Source of the DNA: Kondoa subrosea | Taxonomy: Eukaryota | Direction of reading: 5' to 3' | Length of the DNA: 64,000 nt | Assembly: GCA_039545335.1 (NCBI GenBank) | Contig: BCIN01000002.1 | Location: 1,067,118 to 1,131,117, forward strand | In this document: positions 7,603 to 46,707 of the stretch, piece by piece | Numbering within the stretch: position 1 is the first letter of the stretch | How the letters are laid out: the number at the start of each line of letters is the position of its first letter | Made by a program: the position numbers and the translations under genes | The notes under the pieces: generated by a model | The model's database searches: none | Seen by the model: only the letters and a program-made list of their open reading frames with translations | Told to the model about the DNA's origin: nothing

Positions 7603-8784
7603 ATGCTGGGCATGCTCTCTCTATTATTGTTGCTAGCTCTCTCTCTGTCTATCACAGCCCAGGACTTGACTGATCCTCTCTTACCTTCGACAACCCAAAT
7701 AACAACATCGAATCAAGACGTACCTTTTCCTACAGCTTCCCTTGCTGCCTCAGCTACTTCTACAGCTCTCAACGCTCAACCTACATATACTGACAATCCT
7801 TGCGATTGCCTCTGCTCCAATGCAGCGGTTCTTTTGTATACGTGCTACAATCGAGCTCCCTCATTATCCGATGCTGGAGCTGTAGAGTCCGTTCAATCAC
7901 ATTCTAAGAAGTAGAAGAAATGCTAATAGGTTTTCCTAAAGCGAAAGCTGTCTCTGTGATGAAGGAGATAGTCAGAGTGCTTGTTTTAGATGTATGGTGG
8001 AAAGCGGGCAGCAAGCGTACTTAGCCGGTGGAGAGCAAGGAATGGATTGCCCTGCTAGTCAATCGTTCAATTGCGAGTATTGGATCTACCACATAAGGCA
8101 ATGATTGACGAAATGGGTCAGATCCACTTGTGCCAGGTAAGCTTGAAGCAGGACTAGACCCCAATTTGCTAACGGCTGCTGCAGATTACAATAATCAAGC
8201 TATGACCTCTACTTTGGTCAGTGCGCTATCATAAATTGCGAATAACTCTCATTTTTTTTGTAATGGTCTGACAGATTGCAACACAAGCTTATCAATTTGA
8301 CTTCATGGTGAGTTTGAGCTGGTAGACGTTCTTGTGTCAACTAATGGCTGTTGAGACAAACGCCTATGTCTACCCGACTCAAGCGACTCTCACGTTACCT
8401 TCTTGCCCAACTTCACTCGGAACACCAACAAATGGCTACCTCGCTTTCCCCACACCTTTAAAGAACATGAAACCGCTCTACCCAGAAGCATCTATCGATC
8501 CAGCAGACTTAGTGATCTTTACCACCGCTTCAGATGGATCTTTAGCTACTCGAACAGCTTTCACAGCAGTGACAGCAGCAATGCAAACTTCTGCTATTGC
8601 TTCTTATGGTCCTGAAGAGACGAGCGGTGATACTACTGACCCTAGTATTCTGCAAGGTCAAGATGGTGCTGATTCTGTACCTGAGCAATTGGGAAATGAT
8701 GGCGGAGAAGAAGATTCGAGCGCTATAGGAAGTAATGTGGTTAGGTGGGCTGCTGTAGTAGGATTGATAGCTCTTGTACTGTAA
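7603..8784 (+). CDS. secreted Cys- and Ser/Thr-rich, probably GPI-anchored cell-surface protein, multi-exon
   Basis: Signal peptide MLGMLSLLLLLALSLSITAQ, Cys-rich middle exons, hydrophobic C-terminus SSAIGSNVVRWAAVVGLIALVL. Confidence 0.7.
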
Positions 8785-31267: not shown

Positions 31268-31309
31268 CGGTTTGAGGTGACTTTGAAAAGGTTGTGTGCT
31301 CTAGAGTAG
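31268..31309 (+). pseudogene. orphan 3' fragment of the NmrA-like gene (RFEVTLKRLCALE*)
   Basis: Near-identical to the last 13 codons and stop of the gene at 45678-46707. The upstream part of the gene is absent. Confidence 0.85.
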
Positions 31310-32159
31310 TTGTGTTTTGTTGTGTTTTGGTGAGTCTGTATCACCGTCTTTGGTTTATACTGATCGATTTCTGAGAAAATCAGTCAAAGAGATAGCTAAA
31401 AGCTTCATCTTCTATGATGATTTGTCGTCTAATGTGTCGTAGCGCTTTCAATTATTGTCGTTCCATGAAGTATGTAACTACCCCGACTGATCGACATGGC
31501 TTCTTTAGTTGTGTATCTGCTCCTCTTCATCCTCCTCTATACCTTCCTTTTCAAACTTCCTTGCTTATGGTGGATATCTTCCTTTCTTTCCTCTTCTGTG
31601 TCTTGTCTGCGCTACGTCTCAATTAGTATCCGGTACAAATTCCGCTGACTCGTGAGCAAAAAGATGCCTGAGTTGATCTCAATGAGTGCTTGTCCGCAGA
31701 GGAAGACAAGTAAGCGATCAAGATAACCTGGCTTACGTGGTTCCGTCAGCGATCCTTGAATTACTTTTGAGATGCTTCCACTGCTCTGCTGCTGTTGACA
31801 GGGCTGCGGATATCGTCTCTGTGGGAGCACATAGAACACCGGGATCAGATTTGAGTTGATGATGATGATGCTCTGCTCAACCTTCTTGCTTGATCTGTGC
31901 AGGCACTGACACAGTTGAAGGTATCAAATCAAAGGTGCGATGATTTCGCTCGTGAACACGAGTCACGATGATATGAGATGCTCGATTGGCTTCGCAGTCA
32001 GCTACAGCCGACAAGCACGGTGCAAGAGTGAACCCTGTCATCCCTGCGCCCGTCGTTCTAGGGCCATATGTCTTACAGAAATATCATTTGTACTTTCTAT
32101 ATGTTACAGATGTTTTGCTCACCTCATCGCACGCAAACCTATGTCTTGCTTACGTAATC

Positions 32160-32282
32160 GCCTCTATAGCTCGTCCGCCTCCTTACCTCACCTGCACGAA
32201 TGAAAGCTCATAATTGATACAGAGTTGGGAGAGCGTACGACTGAAGTTCGTAAGGTCACCCGTTCAAACCGGGTTGGAGGCA
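32160..32282 (+). tRNA. tRNA-Phe(GAA) with a 50-nt GT-AG intron between positions 13 and 14 (exons 32160-32172 and 32223-32282)
   Basis: Joined exons give a 73-nt cloverleaf: acceptor GCCTCTA/TGGAGGC, D stem GCTC/GAGC, D loop AGTTGGGA, anticodon stem TACGA/TCGTA, loop CTGAAGT, T stem ACCCG/CGGGT, loop TTCAAAC, discriminator A73. Confidence 0.93.
32173..32222 (+). other. spliceosomal-type intron within tRNA-Phe copy A
   Basis: GTCCGC donor, GCTCAT branch motif at 32206-32211, ACAG acceptor, 50 nt long. Confidence 0.8.
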
Positions 32283-32289
32283 CCTTATC

Positions 32290-32328
32290 TTTTGCTCGGC
32301 GGTCCTTTGTCACTTGCTTCCTTTTTTT
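32290..32328 (+). terminator. putative Pol III oligo-T terminators (T4 at 32290-32293, T7 at 32322-32328)
   Basis: T-runs begin 8 and 40 nt downstream of the tRNA. Equivalent runs are present in copy B. Confidence 0.5.
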
Positions 32329-32764
32329 ACTCGCTATCCAAGGCATGGGAAGACGGAATACGTGCGAGAGCTCACAGCAAATCATCCTGCTGTGCGCACG
32401 CAACGAGATGCAGTCCAGAGCTCAGCAAAGACAAGTCAATGTCCTTGCGATTTTAATCAATGGACAGGCTCAGGCTTCCAGGCAGTACAGAAAGACATAG
32501 CAATCTCAGTGCAGCGCTCGGGAGAGATATGAGCATATAGGAGGTGAACCTGACCGATTGACATGAAGTGGAAGTTCAGAATGTCGCACAGCCAGAGTGC
32601 AAGACGAGGCAGAGACACCAGTGATTTGGCTCTGCACAGAGAACAAGATGAAAGTACAACAGAAAGGTGGGATGAGATGACCAGGCATCAGGAGTGAATG
32701 TCGAGAAGCGAGAAATCAAGGCGGCAAGAGCAGTAGCAGCAATAACCATTCCGCTGTAACGCTT

Positions 32765-33681
32765 CTACGCAGGAGCCTTCTTCTTCTTATCCCTGTGGAA
32801 ACAGTCAGCTCTGCAATATTTTAAGCGACGAGTGACCGACTCTACGATTTCAACGTTGCTGCAAAAAGACATCAGCAATGGGTACACTAAAACATGACTA
32901 AAACGCACTCTTCTGGTACTTTACCTCCTCCTAGAACAGCAGCGACTTTAGGCGTCTTGTCTTGCAGCATTTCCTCCACCTTGAACACAATGAGCTTACG
33001 AACCTCTTAGCACGATGATTTGGGCTCACCTCGTCAGCCACATCTCCCTGTATCACAATCTCATCTTCTCCCTGGTTGTTCTTGCTCACGGAAGCTCCAG
33101 TAGCAAACTTGTTGGCAAAGAGTTTCGAAGCCTTCTTCAGGTCGATGTCTGTCAGTCAATACCGCTGTCTGATCAGATCTATACTGATTGCAGCTATATG
33201 AACCGACCAAATACTTCCAGACCATGTATAGCAGTAACATACTTGCGCTTATTCCGTTCAATGCGCTTGATGAGGACTTTTGAATTTTGACGCTTCTTCT
33301 CAGCTTTCTCGTCTTTCGCAATAGCTTTGGCTTCCTTCTTCCTCGCTTCCTTATCCAGGGAAGATTCAGCTAACTTTGGCTCGAGTCCAGTTTCACCCTC
33401 TTTGAGTTCTGCTTTACTATTAGGATCTGTAGATGAGGCTTGTGCAGCAGCAGAAGTAGATCCATAGATTGTAGCAAACAGATCAGGATGTTCAGATGAG
33501 AGCCAGGTCTTGCACCTGAGTTTCTACAAGTAAGCGCAAAGATCTGATAATGAGAAATGCGAATTGACTTGGACAGCCTGGATCCATATTGGCAGTACTC
33601 GGGTGGGAAAGTACATATAGCGCAGTATAGAGGTGTCTGCTCTTTAACGATCGTCTTCTGAGGTGTTGCTACTTCTGTCAT
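32765..33681 (-). CDS. TMA22: translation machinery-associated protein 22 / DENR (SUI1 domain), 6 exons
   Basis: [16 protein letters not shown]n motif, [55 protein letters not shown]. Ends DKKKKAPA*. Confidence 0.93.
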
Positions 33682-41300: not shown

Positions 41301-42441
41301 AGTCTCTGCTTTGGTCGGATCAATGGATCGATATGCAGCTTCTTACGGTACCACTACTCGAATCCAGTCTGCTCGTGTTGAAAACATTGAGAACCTGGAA
41401 GACATGTGCACGGATTTACTCAAGATGTTCGAGCAGAAGAACAATCGCAAGCCTCAACGAATCATCGTATACCGAGACGGTGTCTCTGAGGGTCAATTCC
41501 AGATTGTTATGCGCAAAGGTCCGCTCTCATGTTTCTCCACTGATCTAACGGAATGTTAATGTCCTATTGCAGAGGTTACTGCTTTCAAGGCTGCATTGCA
41601 AAAATTCAACAATGGTGGCGCTCCTATAAAGATCACTTATATCGTTGCTGCCAAACGCCGTATGTCCCCGACCTGTCTTGCATTTTTACTTGAATCTGAG
41701 CTGTACATCAGATCACTTCCGCTTCTTCCCTACGAGTGACCGTGACGCAGAACGCAGCGGCAATGTCAAGGCTGGTACTGTGAGCTGGTCTCTTGCTTGT
41801 CACGTCTAAGCATAATACTTACAAGAGGCTTTGTAGTGTATTGATCGCGATATCACAGATCCTACTTCTTGGGACTGGTACCTGCAATCTCATGGCGGTT
41901 TATTGGGAACCTCTCGAAGCTCGCATTACACCGTTCTGCTCGGTCAGTCATTGCAGCAGCTATCTCATCGTTCGCTGACCTGGACATGCATACAGATGAG
42001 AACAAGTTCTCGGCCAATCAGATTACTTCGCTTTCCTACAACTTGTGCTACTTGTACGCTCGCAGTACTCGTTCCGTCTCTATCGTCACTCCTTGGTCAG
42101 CTTATTTGCTCTTTTGCTAATCTATTGAGAACGCTAAATTCGTGTTCAGCTATTACGCTCATCATGCTTGCGTTCGTGCCAAGTTGTTGGCTCAACCTCA
42201 AAATGAAGATGCTCAGTCTTCCTTCTCAAACGCTTCACGCGGTTCTCAAGAGTCTGCTGAGCGTCAAAAGGTGAGTCGCCTCGGTTGCTAATGAGATGAA
42301 GTCTGACCTCGGGATACAGCAATTGGATGCTTACAACTCCAATATGAAGCCTCTTCACAACAAGATCTCTGATGTAAGTCCTGATTCATCAGTCGCTCTT
42401 TCACTAGCTTATTCCTCTTACAGACTCTTTACTTCCTTTGA
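38332..42441 (+). CDS. Argonaute (QDE-2/Ago1-like), ~20 short introns
   Basis: N domain ([19 protein letters not shown]), LWRGYFTSLRP...VNVD, PAZ ([25 protein letters not shown]), MID ([20 protein letters not shown]), PIWI ([62 protein letters not shown]). Ends TLYFL*. Confidence 0.96.
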
Positions 42442-43735: not shown

Positions 43736-44262
43736 ATTGAACGGCACAAGCGCAAGTATGTTACTGCTATACATGGTCTGGAAGTTTTTGGTCAGTTCAT
43801 ATCTTTGCAATCAATATGTAGTTGATTGTCATGAGTTTGAAACGACAGACATCGACCTGAAGAAGGCTTCGAAACTCTTTGCCAACAAGTTTGCTACTGG
43901 CGCTTCCGTAAGCGAGAACAACCAGGGCGAAGATAAGATTGTGATACAGGGAGATGTGGCCGATGAGGTGCGCCTAGGTCATTCTGCTGTGGGCTTCTCA
44001 AGCTCATTATATTTCAAGGTTGAGGAAATGCTGCAAGACAAGACGCCTAAAGTCGCTGCTGTTCTAGGAGGAGGCAAAGTACCAGAAGAGTGCGTTCTGA
44101 TCAGTGTACCAGAAGAGTGCGTTCTGATCAGTGTTCTAGTGTACCTTTACTGATGTCTCTTTTGCAGTAATGTCGAAATCGTAGAGTCGGTCTTTTGTTG
44201 CTCAGTATGACACAGAGCTGACTTTTTTCCACAGGGATAAGAAGAAGAAGGCTCCTGCGTAG
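43736..44262 (+). pseudogene. 5'-truncated TMA22/DENR copy (SUI1-domain exons only)
   Basis: [33 protein letters not shown]...DKKKKAPA*. The start codon and N-terminal Zn motif are missing; frame and splice sites are intact. Confidence 0.8.
44079..44132 (+). repeat. 27-bp perfect tandem duplication spanning a splice donor
   Basis: GTACCAGAAGAGTGCGTTCTGATCAGT x2. Single in copy A. Confidence 0.9.
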
Positions 44263-44734
44263 AAGCGTTGCAGCGGAATGGTTATTGCTGCTGCTACTGC
44301 TGCGCTTGCTACCTTGATTTCTCTTTTCTCGATAGTTCTGTCTGGTGAAGTCGTCTCACCTCTTTGTTGTGCTTCTTCTTGTCCTCTGCACGTGAGCCAT
44401 ATTACTGGTGTCTCTGCTTTGTCTTTTACTCTGGCTGTCCGACATTCTGAACTTCCACTTCATGTTCATCGGTCAGATTCACCCCTTATATGCTCATATC
44501 TCTCCCGAGCGCTGCACTTGGATTGCTATGTGTCTCTGGACTGCCATGGAAGCCTGGCCCTGTGTATTTTCACAACCGCAAAGACATTGACTTGTCTTTG
44601 CTGAGCCTCGGGACTGCATCTCTTTGCGTAGGCATGATCCGCTGTTTGTTCGCGCGTTGGCTGCCTATCTCCTCATGCTAAAATAGCGAGCAAAAAAGAA
44701 GCACGAAACAAGGACCGCCGAGCAAAAGATAAGG

Positions 44735-44857
44735 TGCCTCCAACCCGGTTTGAACGGGTGACCTTACGAACTTCAGTCGTACGCTCTCCCAACTCTGTAT
44801 CAATTATGAGCTTTCATTCGTGCAGGTGAGGTAAGGAGACGGACGAGCTATAGAGGC
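44735..44857 (-). tRNA. tRNA-Phe(GAA) copy B with a 50-nt GT-AG intron at 13/14 (exons 44857-44845 and 44794-44735)
   Basis: Exons identical to copy A. Intron 44795-44844 is identical at 49/50 nt (donor GTCCGT). Confidence 0.93.
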
Positions 44858-45677
44858 GATTACGTAAGCAAGACATAGGTTTGCGTGCGATGAATTGAGC
44901 AGATCACATAAGACATATAGACAGTACAAATGATATTTCTGTAAGACACATGGCCTTAGAATGACGGGCGTGGCATGAGAGCGTTCACTCTTGCTCCGTA
45001 CTTGTCGGCTGCAGCTGACTGCGAAGCCAATCGAGAATCTCGTGTCATCGCAACTCTTGTTCATCAGTGAAATCATCGCACCTTTGATTTGAAACCTTCA
45101 ATGTCAGTGCCTGCTCAGATCAAGCAAGAAGGTTGAGCAGATCATTGCGTGCATCATTCAAATCTGACACCGATGTCCAAACATAGCCAATGTCCACAGC
45201 CTTGTCAGCAGCAGCCGAGCATCGAAAGCTCTCAAAGATAGGCTCAAGAGTTCTCAGGCGGTTTCATGTAAGCCAAGTTACCTTGGTCGCTTACTTGTCT
45301 TCTTCTGCGGACAAGCATTCAGTGAGACCAACTCAGGCATCTTTTTGCTCACGAGTCAGCGGAATTTGTACCGGATACTAATTGAGACGTCGCGCAGACA
45401 AGATATAGAAGAGGGAGAAAGGAAGATATCCGACATGAGCAAGGAAGTTTGAAAAGGAAGGCACAGAGGAGGATGAAGAGGAGCAGATACACAACTAGAG
45501 AAGCCATATCGATCAGTCGAGGTAGTTGCATACCTCATGGAACGACAATAATCGAAAGCGCTGCGACTCATTAGGCCAGAAGTCATCATATAGAAAGGAA
45601 GGCTTTAGCTATCACTTTGACTGAGAAAATCGATCAGTATAAACCAAAGACGATGATACAGACTCACCAAAACACAA

Positions 45678-46707
45678 CTACTCTTGAGCACACAACCTTT
45701 TCAAAGTCACCTCAAACCGCTCGGGCTCTCTACCCAAATACCTCTTCAGCTCATCCGTCACCACACATGTCTCTCCTTGTCGAATAGCCGCGAAGCTTTC
45801 TGCCCAAAGAGGAGCTATTTCGCCTAGATTCTGCTTGACTTCTTCGCTATTGATGTATTCCTCCATAGAGACTTGCTTGATTTCGAACTTCCTTCCAAGG
45901 ACATTACTGACAATGTTTGCGGCTTCTTGTAGCGAAAGAGATTGTGGACCACTGAGAATGATCTTGTGGCCATTCCTGAATTCTTTGACATGTGTAGAAT
46001 AGCGGAATAAGATGTTGGCTGTAGCTTCTCCCAGTTCAGGTCTGTGAACAAAAGCAACGCCCGGCCCACTTCCATCATGCGGAATTCGGATGTCTGTTGA
46101 TTGTGACTTGGGAGAGATGAAACCTAGATACATGGAAAGAGCTGAGCTTGAGTAGAGACCATGGCGGATTATCATATAAGAGAAGTCGGCATTTGTAGAT
46201 GCGATGCGAGCAAGATAAGTCTCAGTATTGATGTGGGCGCGCATCACAGCTGCCACGGTAGTATCGCCATAACCAGCATATGCGAGTGAAGAGTAGACGA
46301 TCTGCAAGCTGGGCATGAGTCTATGCAGAGGGAAGCAACGCATTGCGCTCACTGTCTTGACACCTTGAGCTACGGCAGCATCGATGGCTTGAATGTGCAA
46401 TTTGGTTCTAGCGTCCCTCGTTCAGTATTGACCGAGGTCTAAGACACTAGAAGCACCTCAGATCCACATCGAACGAAGGGTACGAGATGAGATTGAGCAC
46501 ATCGATCCCCTTGAAGACACCTTCCAAACTAGCAGCATCTTCGAAATCGCCTTTGCGGACGATAGCACCCTTCTCAGCTTGTTCTTTGAGTTTGTCGGGA
46601 GTTCGAGCGATCAGAACTACCTTCGATGGTTCGGTAAGGATTAAGAGATGCTGTAAAGTCAGATTGCCGACATTGCCAGCGGCTGGAAAGATACCAATCG
46701 TTGCCAT
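45678..46707 (-). CDS. NmrA-like NAD(P)-binding atypical SDR, multi-exon
   Basis: MATIGIFPAAGNVG, VRKGDFEDAASL..VFKGIDVLNLIS, AIDAAVAQGVK, YSSLAY, IIRHGLYS, VHRPELGEATA, LSGPQSLSLQE. Confidence 0.85.

Follow-up and report, generated by a model that had tools for sequence, protein, structure and literature searches.

The question raised by this locus is whether two tRNA-Phe genes, each split by 50 nt at the edge of the D-loop, are working genes, and what kind of intron interrupts them. The window (the whole 64,000-nucleotide stretch of DNA that was analysed) was eukaryotic in character, with a GC content of 43-49%, many short introns, and genes of the SNF2/HSA, HIRA, Piwi, protein-kinase, PHD, and raffinose-synthase-like kinds. 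For the raffinose-synthase-like ORF a single homologue was obtained, 49% identical, and the atlas neighbours of the SNF2 and Piwi pieces belonged to mixed phyla. In copies A and B alike, 13 nt of exon precede the 50-nt insert and 60 nt of exon follow it; the parts are placed as follows.

32160-32282, plus strand: copy A, whole gene
32160-32172, plus strand: copy A, exon 1
32173-32222, plus strand: copy A, 50-nt D-loop insert, donor GTCCGC
32223-32282, plus strand: copy A, exon 2, with a partial Rfam tRNA match at 32220-32276
44735-44857, minus strand: copy B, whole gene
44845-44857, minus strand: copy B, exon 1 (tRNA positions 1-13), identical to exon 1 of copy A
44795-44844, minus strand: copy B, 50-nt D-loop insert, with donor GTCCGT, CTCAT branch-like motif, and ACAG acceptor
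44735-44794, minus strand: copy B, exon 2 (tRNA positions 14-73)

The initial annotation had reported that the copies are identical at 73/73 exon and 49/50 insert positions, and both figures were reproduced. Their sole difference is base 6 of the insert, which is C at 32178 in copy A and T at 44839 (minus strand) in copy B, as had been stated. After removal of the insert, ARAGORN recognised both copies as a 73-nt tRNA-Phe(GAA) with a complete cloverleaf. With the unspliced genomic sequence of the window ARAGORN called 0 tRNA genes, the Rfam search of the window showed no tRNA at the gathering score, and exon 2 alone reached a sub-threshold 20.8 bits (threshold 29) against the Rfam tRNA model. 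The insert follows tRNA position 13 and precedes position 14, which places it at the 5' border of the D-loop; it leaves the anticodon loop CTGAAGT intact. The A-box region is cut by the insert (TAGCTC/AGTTGGG) and the B-box region is intact in both copies, the boxes being assigned by their consensus sequences. A TTTT run follows 8-11 nt past the tRNA 3' end, at 32290-32293 for copy A and 44724-44727 for copy B. An Rfam match to the Plastid-ycf2 5'UTR at 32177-32283 (minus strand; 27.2 bits against a gathering score of 65.7) lies on the antisense strand of the tRNA and was set aside as an artefact.

As a reference for the splice signals of the insert, 17 mRNA introns of the window were collected by reading-frame continuity, comprising five in the TMA22 gene, four in the Piwi gene, and eight between long ORFs, the latter from Pfam-supported genes. 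TMA22 was also the gene on which divergence in exons and introns was gauged and from which traits of local introns were taken. The set was checked by hand and replaced an automatic intron learning (hard EM on 171 ORF pairs) that had converged on noise, namely GTC-rich coding segments. Introns at 33207-33149, 32840-32793, and 41519-41572 are examples of it, and two of the features behind it are the following.

32765-33681, minus strand: TMA22/DENR-like gene of duplication arm A, 6 exons, 218 aa
41519-41572, plus strand: Piwi-gene intron, 54 nt, donor GTCCGC as in the insert of copy A

The reference introns were 48-61 nt long (median 53), those of TMA22 measuring 53, 59, 50, 50, and 48 nt. A G at +5 was present in 13/17, a pyrimidine at +6 in 16/17, a YAG acceptor in 14/17, and YTNAY, the branch-point consensus, with the A at a distance of 8-30 nt from the 3' end, in 12/17; all of these rules combined were satisfied by 10/17. 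The mRNA donors were loose at +3/+4 (GTC, GTG, GTA, GTT) and kept G5 and Y6, giving a GTNNGY-like pattern. For the Piwi intron, the Piwi domain match stops 4 nt upstream and the frame resumes across the 54-nt gap. A donor candidate with GTCCGT at 7887-7929 had no downstream coding support and was rejected. The statement that both donor variants of the tRNA inserts are used by mRNA introns was thus upheld for GTCCGC, by the Piwi intron, and for GTCCGT no mRNA intron was verified; C and T both occur at +6 among the verified mRNA donors.

The insert ends at boundaries fixed by the cloverleaf, GTCCGY...ACAG. Because the cloverleaf leaves the junction no freedom (exactly 50 nt are removed), the GT...AG ends were not chosen by the analyst. 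With G5, Y6, a CAG acceptor, a CTCAT motif whose A is 12 nt from the 3' end, and a length of 50 nt, the insert passed every rule drawn from the local mRNA introns (G5, Y6, YAG, and YTNAY with the A 8-30 nt from the 3' end). GT..AG ends were found in 524 of the 127,900 50-mers of the window, and all intron rules were satisfied by 16 of the 127,900, genuine introns included. The chance that a fixed 50-mer of this window meets all the spliceosomal rules is about 1.3e-4, for rules defined after the data had been seen and for 17 reference introns that are our own reading of the frames. Runs of four or more T, at which Pol III would stop, were absent from the insert and present in 5/17 mRNA introns. 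Near the 3' end of an mRNA-intron candidate (62553-62497), the insert's GCTCATAAT is found again. Judged from these signals, the insert looks like a local spliceosomal intron; by its junctions, scored below, it is not visibly of the bulge-helix-bulge (BHB) type.

A pattern scan of metagenome contigs gave 15 loci, among which L005 and L007 were the only true interrupted tRNA-Phe genes; in the other 13/15 a normal tRNA-Phe gene happened to have TAGCTC upstream. The pattern covered inserts at 13/14, and the insert at 15/16 was found by luck. The same kind of scan on prokaryote genomes gave one locus, a false positive that was an archaeal tRNA-Phe with a partial upstream repeat. L005 and L007 were counted as one lineage because they are 99.6% alike over 1283 nt. 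The gene lies as follows.

560-700 of L005, minus strand: interrupted tRNA-Phe

The mature tRNA-Phe of L005 was identical to that of the window at 59/73 positions. Its insert is also 50 nt long and is unrelated in sequence to the window insert; leader, insert, and trailer share nothing with their window counterparts. The insert can be read at 13/14, 14/15, or 15/16, and GT...AG ends appear only at 15/16, where it reads GTGGGT...CCTAAC...TATAG. Without the insert, ARAGORN gave a perfect cloverleaf of tRNA-Phe(GAA). A TTTT run follows 4 nt downstream and TATATAA stands about 35 nt upstream. The L005 donor GTGGG copies the D-loop TTGGG, so that exon 1 and the intron start rebuild an A-box-like sequence, and the insert is flanked at both ends by a 7/8-base direct repeat (AG-K-TGGG) resembling a target-site duplication. 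The window insert carries neither A-box mimicry nor a flanking direct repeat. Upstream of the L005 gene GGGGTCACCCCCCAAATGAACA-type inverted repeats were observed, and its single ORF had no Pfam match.

An origin of the inserts by tRNA duplication was sought by local alignment of each insert to its own tRNA, sense and antisense, and the scores were no better than those of shuffles, of which 342, 1241, 1892, and 533 of 2000 reached the observed score (inserts of the window and L005). For a repeat or transposon origin, the window insert, leader, and trailer had no other match in the window beyond chance matches of 9-13 nt.

The insert might instead be an ectopic tRNA intron cut by a relaxed tRNA-splicing endonuclease, the GT...AG ends and the branch-like motif being coincidental. 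Ectopic D-arm introns occur in red-algal nuclear tRNA genes, some without the central helix, and most of the ectopic introns of the Guillardia nucleomorph are unable to form a BHB (PMC3728597). Some Cyanidioschyzon ectopic tRNA introns lack the central BHB helix and are still processed, and because of these "no H" introns the absence of a BHB is compatible with endonuclease cleavage (PMC3728597). The heterotetrameric TSEN enzyme removes only introns at 37/38, and non-heterotetrameric eukaryotic endonucleases might cut non-canonical sites (PMC10485636). The window insert, at 13/14, is not placed as a canonical TSEN-type intron at 37/38 would be, and its position outside 37/38 in a nuclear tRNA gene is that of an ectopic intron. 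At three cut offsets, the junctions of copies A and B formed 0-1/4 pairs of the central helix, with poor flanking helices, and those of L005 formed 1-2/4; a BHB was scored here as a 4-bp central helix between two 3-nt bulges, an assumed cut geometry applied without a positive control. Folded alone, the insert reached only −1.3 kcal/mol, with no stable fold, and in the cloverleaf-constrained fold the 3' junction lay inside a 3-bp helix. The poor junctions, the low chance of a fixed 50-mer satisfying the spliceosomal rules, the agreement of the insert with local mRNA intron length, and the independent L005 insert, which is also textbook GT/CTAAC/TAG, all argue against endonuclease removal, which we consider very unlikely.

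With the cloverleaf enforced, insert bases 2-5 and 7-9 could pair with the final base of the insert and with the bases at the start of the D-loop. This possible pairing of 32173-32181 with 32222-32229 comprises 7 pairs, two of them G-U, and would bring the splice junctions together; it was not seen in L005.

Both copies lie inside an inverted duplication, and a much more conserved block surrounds each of them.

31268-33262: duplication arm A, running from a non-coding snoRNA-like region through tRNA-Phe into the 3' part of TMA22
43736-45719: duplication arm B, inverted relative to arm A
32124-32307, plus strand: near-identical block, copy A side
44710-44893, minus strand: near-identical block, copy B side, 1 mismatch at 44839

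Aligned with 45719-43736, the stretch 31268-33262 was 83.7% identical; the 2046 columns included 221 mismatches, and 66 gaps were opened. The identity peak was centred on the tRNA, as the initial annotation had expected, with the midpoints of block and gene within about 6 nt of each other. The block is identical at 183/184 positions (54 and 129 identical bases around the single mismatch). Its extent of 36 nt upstream agrees with what had been noted before, and its downstream extent was corrected from about 23 to 25 nt. Between the arms, identity was 276/291 (95%) in the TMA22 exons, 154/238 (65%) in the TMA22 introns, 347/467 from the TMA22 stop to the block, 73/73 in the tRNA exons, 49/50 in the tRNA insert, and 61/61 in the tRNA flanks. 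The TMA22 introns, with 154/238 identical columns, are therefore far more diverged than the block, in agreement with the earlier claim.

The 96 codons shared by the TMA22 arms showed 12 synonymous and 3 non-synonymous differences, resulting in a pS of 0.187 (synonymous sites 81% alike), a dS of 0.216, a dN of 0.014, and a dN/dS of about 0.065. From a dS of about 0.22 it follows that the duplication is old and that both TMA22 pieces have been under purifying selection. At 43736-44300 (plus strand) in arm B, TMA22 starts only at about codon 122; this 3' part has all its exon frames and splice sites intact. By its sequence, this piece is probably an expressed and selected coding piece rather than a pseudogene, and it is perhaps fused to other upstream exons. 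Intron 4 of the arm B piece (44079-44132, plus strand) contains an exact 27-nt tandem duplication, so that the final 8 nt of exon 4 and the GTGCGT donor are present twice.

Outside the tRNA the block has 111 bases, and these contained 1 difference (110/111). The probability of at most one difference was 0.019 at the coding-exon rate, 2.6e-9 at the synonymous rate, and 1e-19 at the intron rate. On account of these values the block is not neutral, yet its similarity exceeds that of coding sequence under strong selection. It has sharp edges, with 10 mismatches in the 29 nt immediately upstream and about 50% identity immediately downstream, so that it adjoins the most diverged sequence of the duplication. 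The downstream end lies 13 nt beyond the T-run. In the comparison of the arms, ordinary introns conserved only their ends and branch region. Among tRNA gene copies, and likewise between inverted repeats, short conversion tracts often occur, and a short, sharp, near-identical tract on a tRNA within a diverged duplication is what concerted evolution of duplicated tRNA genes looks like. The block has the form of a gene-conversion tract, being sharply bounded and more alike than the selected coding sequence of the same duplication. Compared from two sequences only, a short gene-conversion tract would fit the block at least as well as base-by-base constraint.

The conservation pattern had been read as a sign that the leader and the intron interior are constrained, and this argument was not borne out, given the excess over coding exons, the sharp edges, and the end-only conservation of ordinary introns; a recent gene-conversion tract, which had been named as an outcome contrary to that view, fits at least as well. 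Purifying selection over leader, intron interior, and trailer, acting on a compensating promoter or on a required precursor structure, appears unlikely to us. The block is centred on the gene and spans the expected upstream promoter, transcription start, and terminator, the split A box needs some compensating element, intron bases 2-9 can form seven pairs with the 3' junction and D-loop, and the donor of L005 does rebuild an A-box-like sequence, all of which speak for such selection. It is opposed by an identity that coding exons under strong selection do not reach (P = 0.019 for the exon rate), by the reach of this identity 13 nt past the T-run, by edges that are abrupt rather than patchy, by the lack of a stable fold in the insert alone, and by the L005 leader, insert, and trailer, which are unlike those of the window.

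If conversion explains the identity, the genes need not be functional to be alike. They could be dead, each with its A box broken by a 50-nt inserted piece, with a functional intronless tRNA-Phe elsewhere and with identity arising from conversion between pseudogenes. One route to this state would be a spliceosomal intron reverse-spliced into a tRNA, followed by retro-integration. The split A box is as expected for dead genes. However, the duplication is old (dS 0.22, introns 65%) and cloverleaf, B-box region, and T-run are nevertheless perfect in both copies, and conversion of dead copies would homogenise them, not preserve perfection. All splice signals are kept, the sole change being the C/T at +6, both of which are found in working donors. 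L005, the second lineage, is built in the same way: its tRNA is perfect, and a TATA-like box and a T-run accompany it. Function is thus supported by the perfect tRNA, B-box region, and T-run kept in old copies and by an independent lineage with the same design, and we regard the death of both genes as improbable. The earlier view that this is not a decayed insertion was sustained by the perfect cloverleaf, the intact B-box region, and the TTTT kept in both copies despite the old duplication. Genomic contigs from two DNA runs of one sample, each amounting to about 19 Mb, showed no joints and no variants among the matches listed when searched at 80% likeness; this result does not bear on intronless copies, because matches as short as 60 nt may escape such a search.

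The reading we prefer, and hold with about evenly balanced confidence, is that copies A and B would be working nuclear tRNA-Phe(GAA) genes with an ordinary U2-type GT-AG intron at 13/14, the block being the product of recent conversion together with selection on the tRNA. The tRNA-Phe precursor would then be transcribed with the intron included, and the spliceosome would excise the insert, for which GTCCGY would serve as 5' splice site, the A of CTCAT would form the branch point, and the first AG downstream of it would be the acceptor, while RNase P and RNase Z would trim the precursor ends. An intact B box and an intact T-run downstream make Pol III the most likely polymerase, and the case would then parallel the spliced U6 gene of fission yeast. 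Against Pol III stands the A box, which is merely split, with no A-box-like replacement within the window intron, and the promoter role that had been proposed for the intron is not visible in the window. Alternatively, the tRNA might be the tail of an upstream Pol II snoRNA-host-like transcript. More tentatively, and with less confidence than we place in the genes of the window, at least two unrelated and poorly sampled eukaryote lineages may possess a tRNA-Phe that matures only via the spliceosome, from a Pol III precursor or a snoRNA-host Pol II precursor.

Nuclear tRNA introns are usually presented as a separate class, located at 37/38 or, in a few algae, marked by a BHB, which a protein endonuclease removes. 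Like the canonical introns at 37/38, the window insert is a short intervening sequence whose removal is needed for a functional tRNA; it differs from them by its 13/14 position and by having no anticodon-intron helix. As in the ectopic introns of Cyanidioschyzon merolae, a nuclear tRNA is split outside 37/38, the D-arm included, and as with the ectopic-intron genes of C. merolae and Archaea, the genes are missed by standard tRNA finders (PMC3728597). The C. merolae and archaeal introns are BHB-defined and cut by the tRNA endonuclease (PMC3728597), whereas here GT-AG ends, a branch motif, and mRNA-intron length are found instead.

Spliceosomal introns are known in the U6 gene of Schizosaccharomyces pombe and other fungi, and also in Rhodotorula U1, U2, and U5 and in ascomycete rDNA (PMC5855946). 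The window insert resembles these snRNA and rDNA introns in that a GT-AG intron with 5' splice, branch, and 3' splice sites splits a conserved structural RNA, the U6 host being, moreover, a Pol III gene (PMC5855946). Those introns have lineage-unrelated sequences and varying sites (PMC5855946), and likewise the window intron at 13/14 and the L005 intron at 15/16 are unrelated. The difference is in the host, which here is a tRNA, a kind absent from the list of hosts in that review (PMC5855946). A tRNA is not known to lie near the spliceosome's active site, and unlike the snRNA and rDNA cases, the intragenic A-box promoter is split here. Splicing of the S. pombe U6 was demonstrated, and the tRNA-Phe insert is known here from sequence alone.

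A full-text literature search, with most subscription journals outside its reach, returned no account of a tRNA gene that carries a spliceosomal intron. Two kinds already known appear to be combined in copies A and B: the spliceosomal intron that interrupts a structural RNA gene, and the ectopic tRNA intron. If the preferred reading is true, a tRNA gene needing the spliceosome would connect two systems of RNA processing that are regarded as distinct. If, beyond that, tRNA-Phe matures only in this way, translation of Phe codons would depend on mRNA-type splicing. Such maturation would provide a third route of tRNA-intron removal beside endonuclease and ligase and the self-splicing group I introns, and the tRNA would join U6, U1, U2, U5, and rRNA as hosts of spliceosomal introns. 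The genes would also form a natural test case for the splicing of Pol III transcripts and for transcription with a split A box. Annotation of the tRNAscan or ARAGORN type would systematically miss such genes, and an apparently "missing" tRNA-Phe would be present. The two sites (13/14 and 15/16) with unrelated introns would suggest recurrent intron gain in the same loop. If, on the other hand, the copies are dead, the finding shrinks to a curiosity of concerted evolution.

The same-strand region upstream of each tRNA is non-coding and was inspected in both arms.

31268-32120, plus strand: non-coding region upstream of copy A
44895-45719, minus strand: non-coding region upstream of copy B
31414-31420 with 31487-31490: C/D-box-like pair, ATGATGA with CTGA
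31857-31868 with 31906-31909: second C/D-box-like pair, TGATGA repeats with CTGA

Sorted by position mod 3, its mismatches (13/11/9 and 18/13/13) followed no codon periodicity. It was 81-90% conserved between the arms, except for 59% at 31747-31845, and it also carries GT...AG intron-like signals. From these features the region is possibly a snoRNA host gene; the Rfam scan of the tRNA flanks named no snoRNA. Contigs of runs X1 and X2 matched the window up to about 32012-32036 and 44998-45050 and then diverged, which suggests that about 150-190 nt upstream of each tRNA lies a short element with further copies in the genome.
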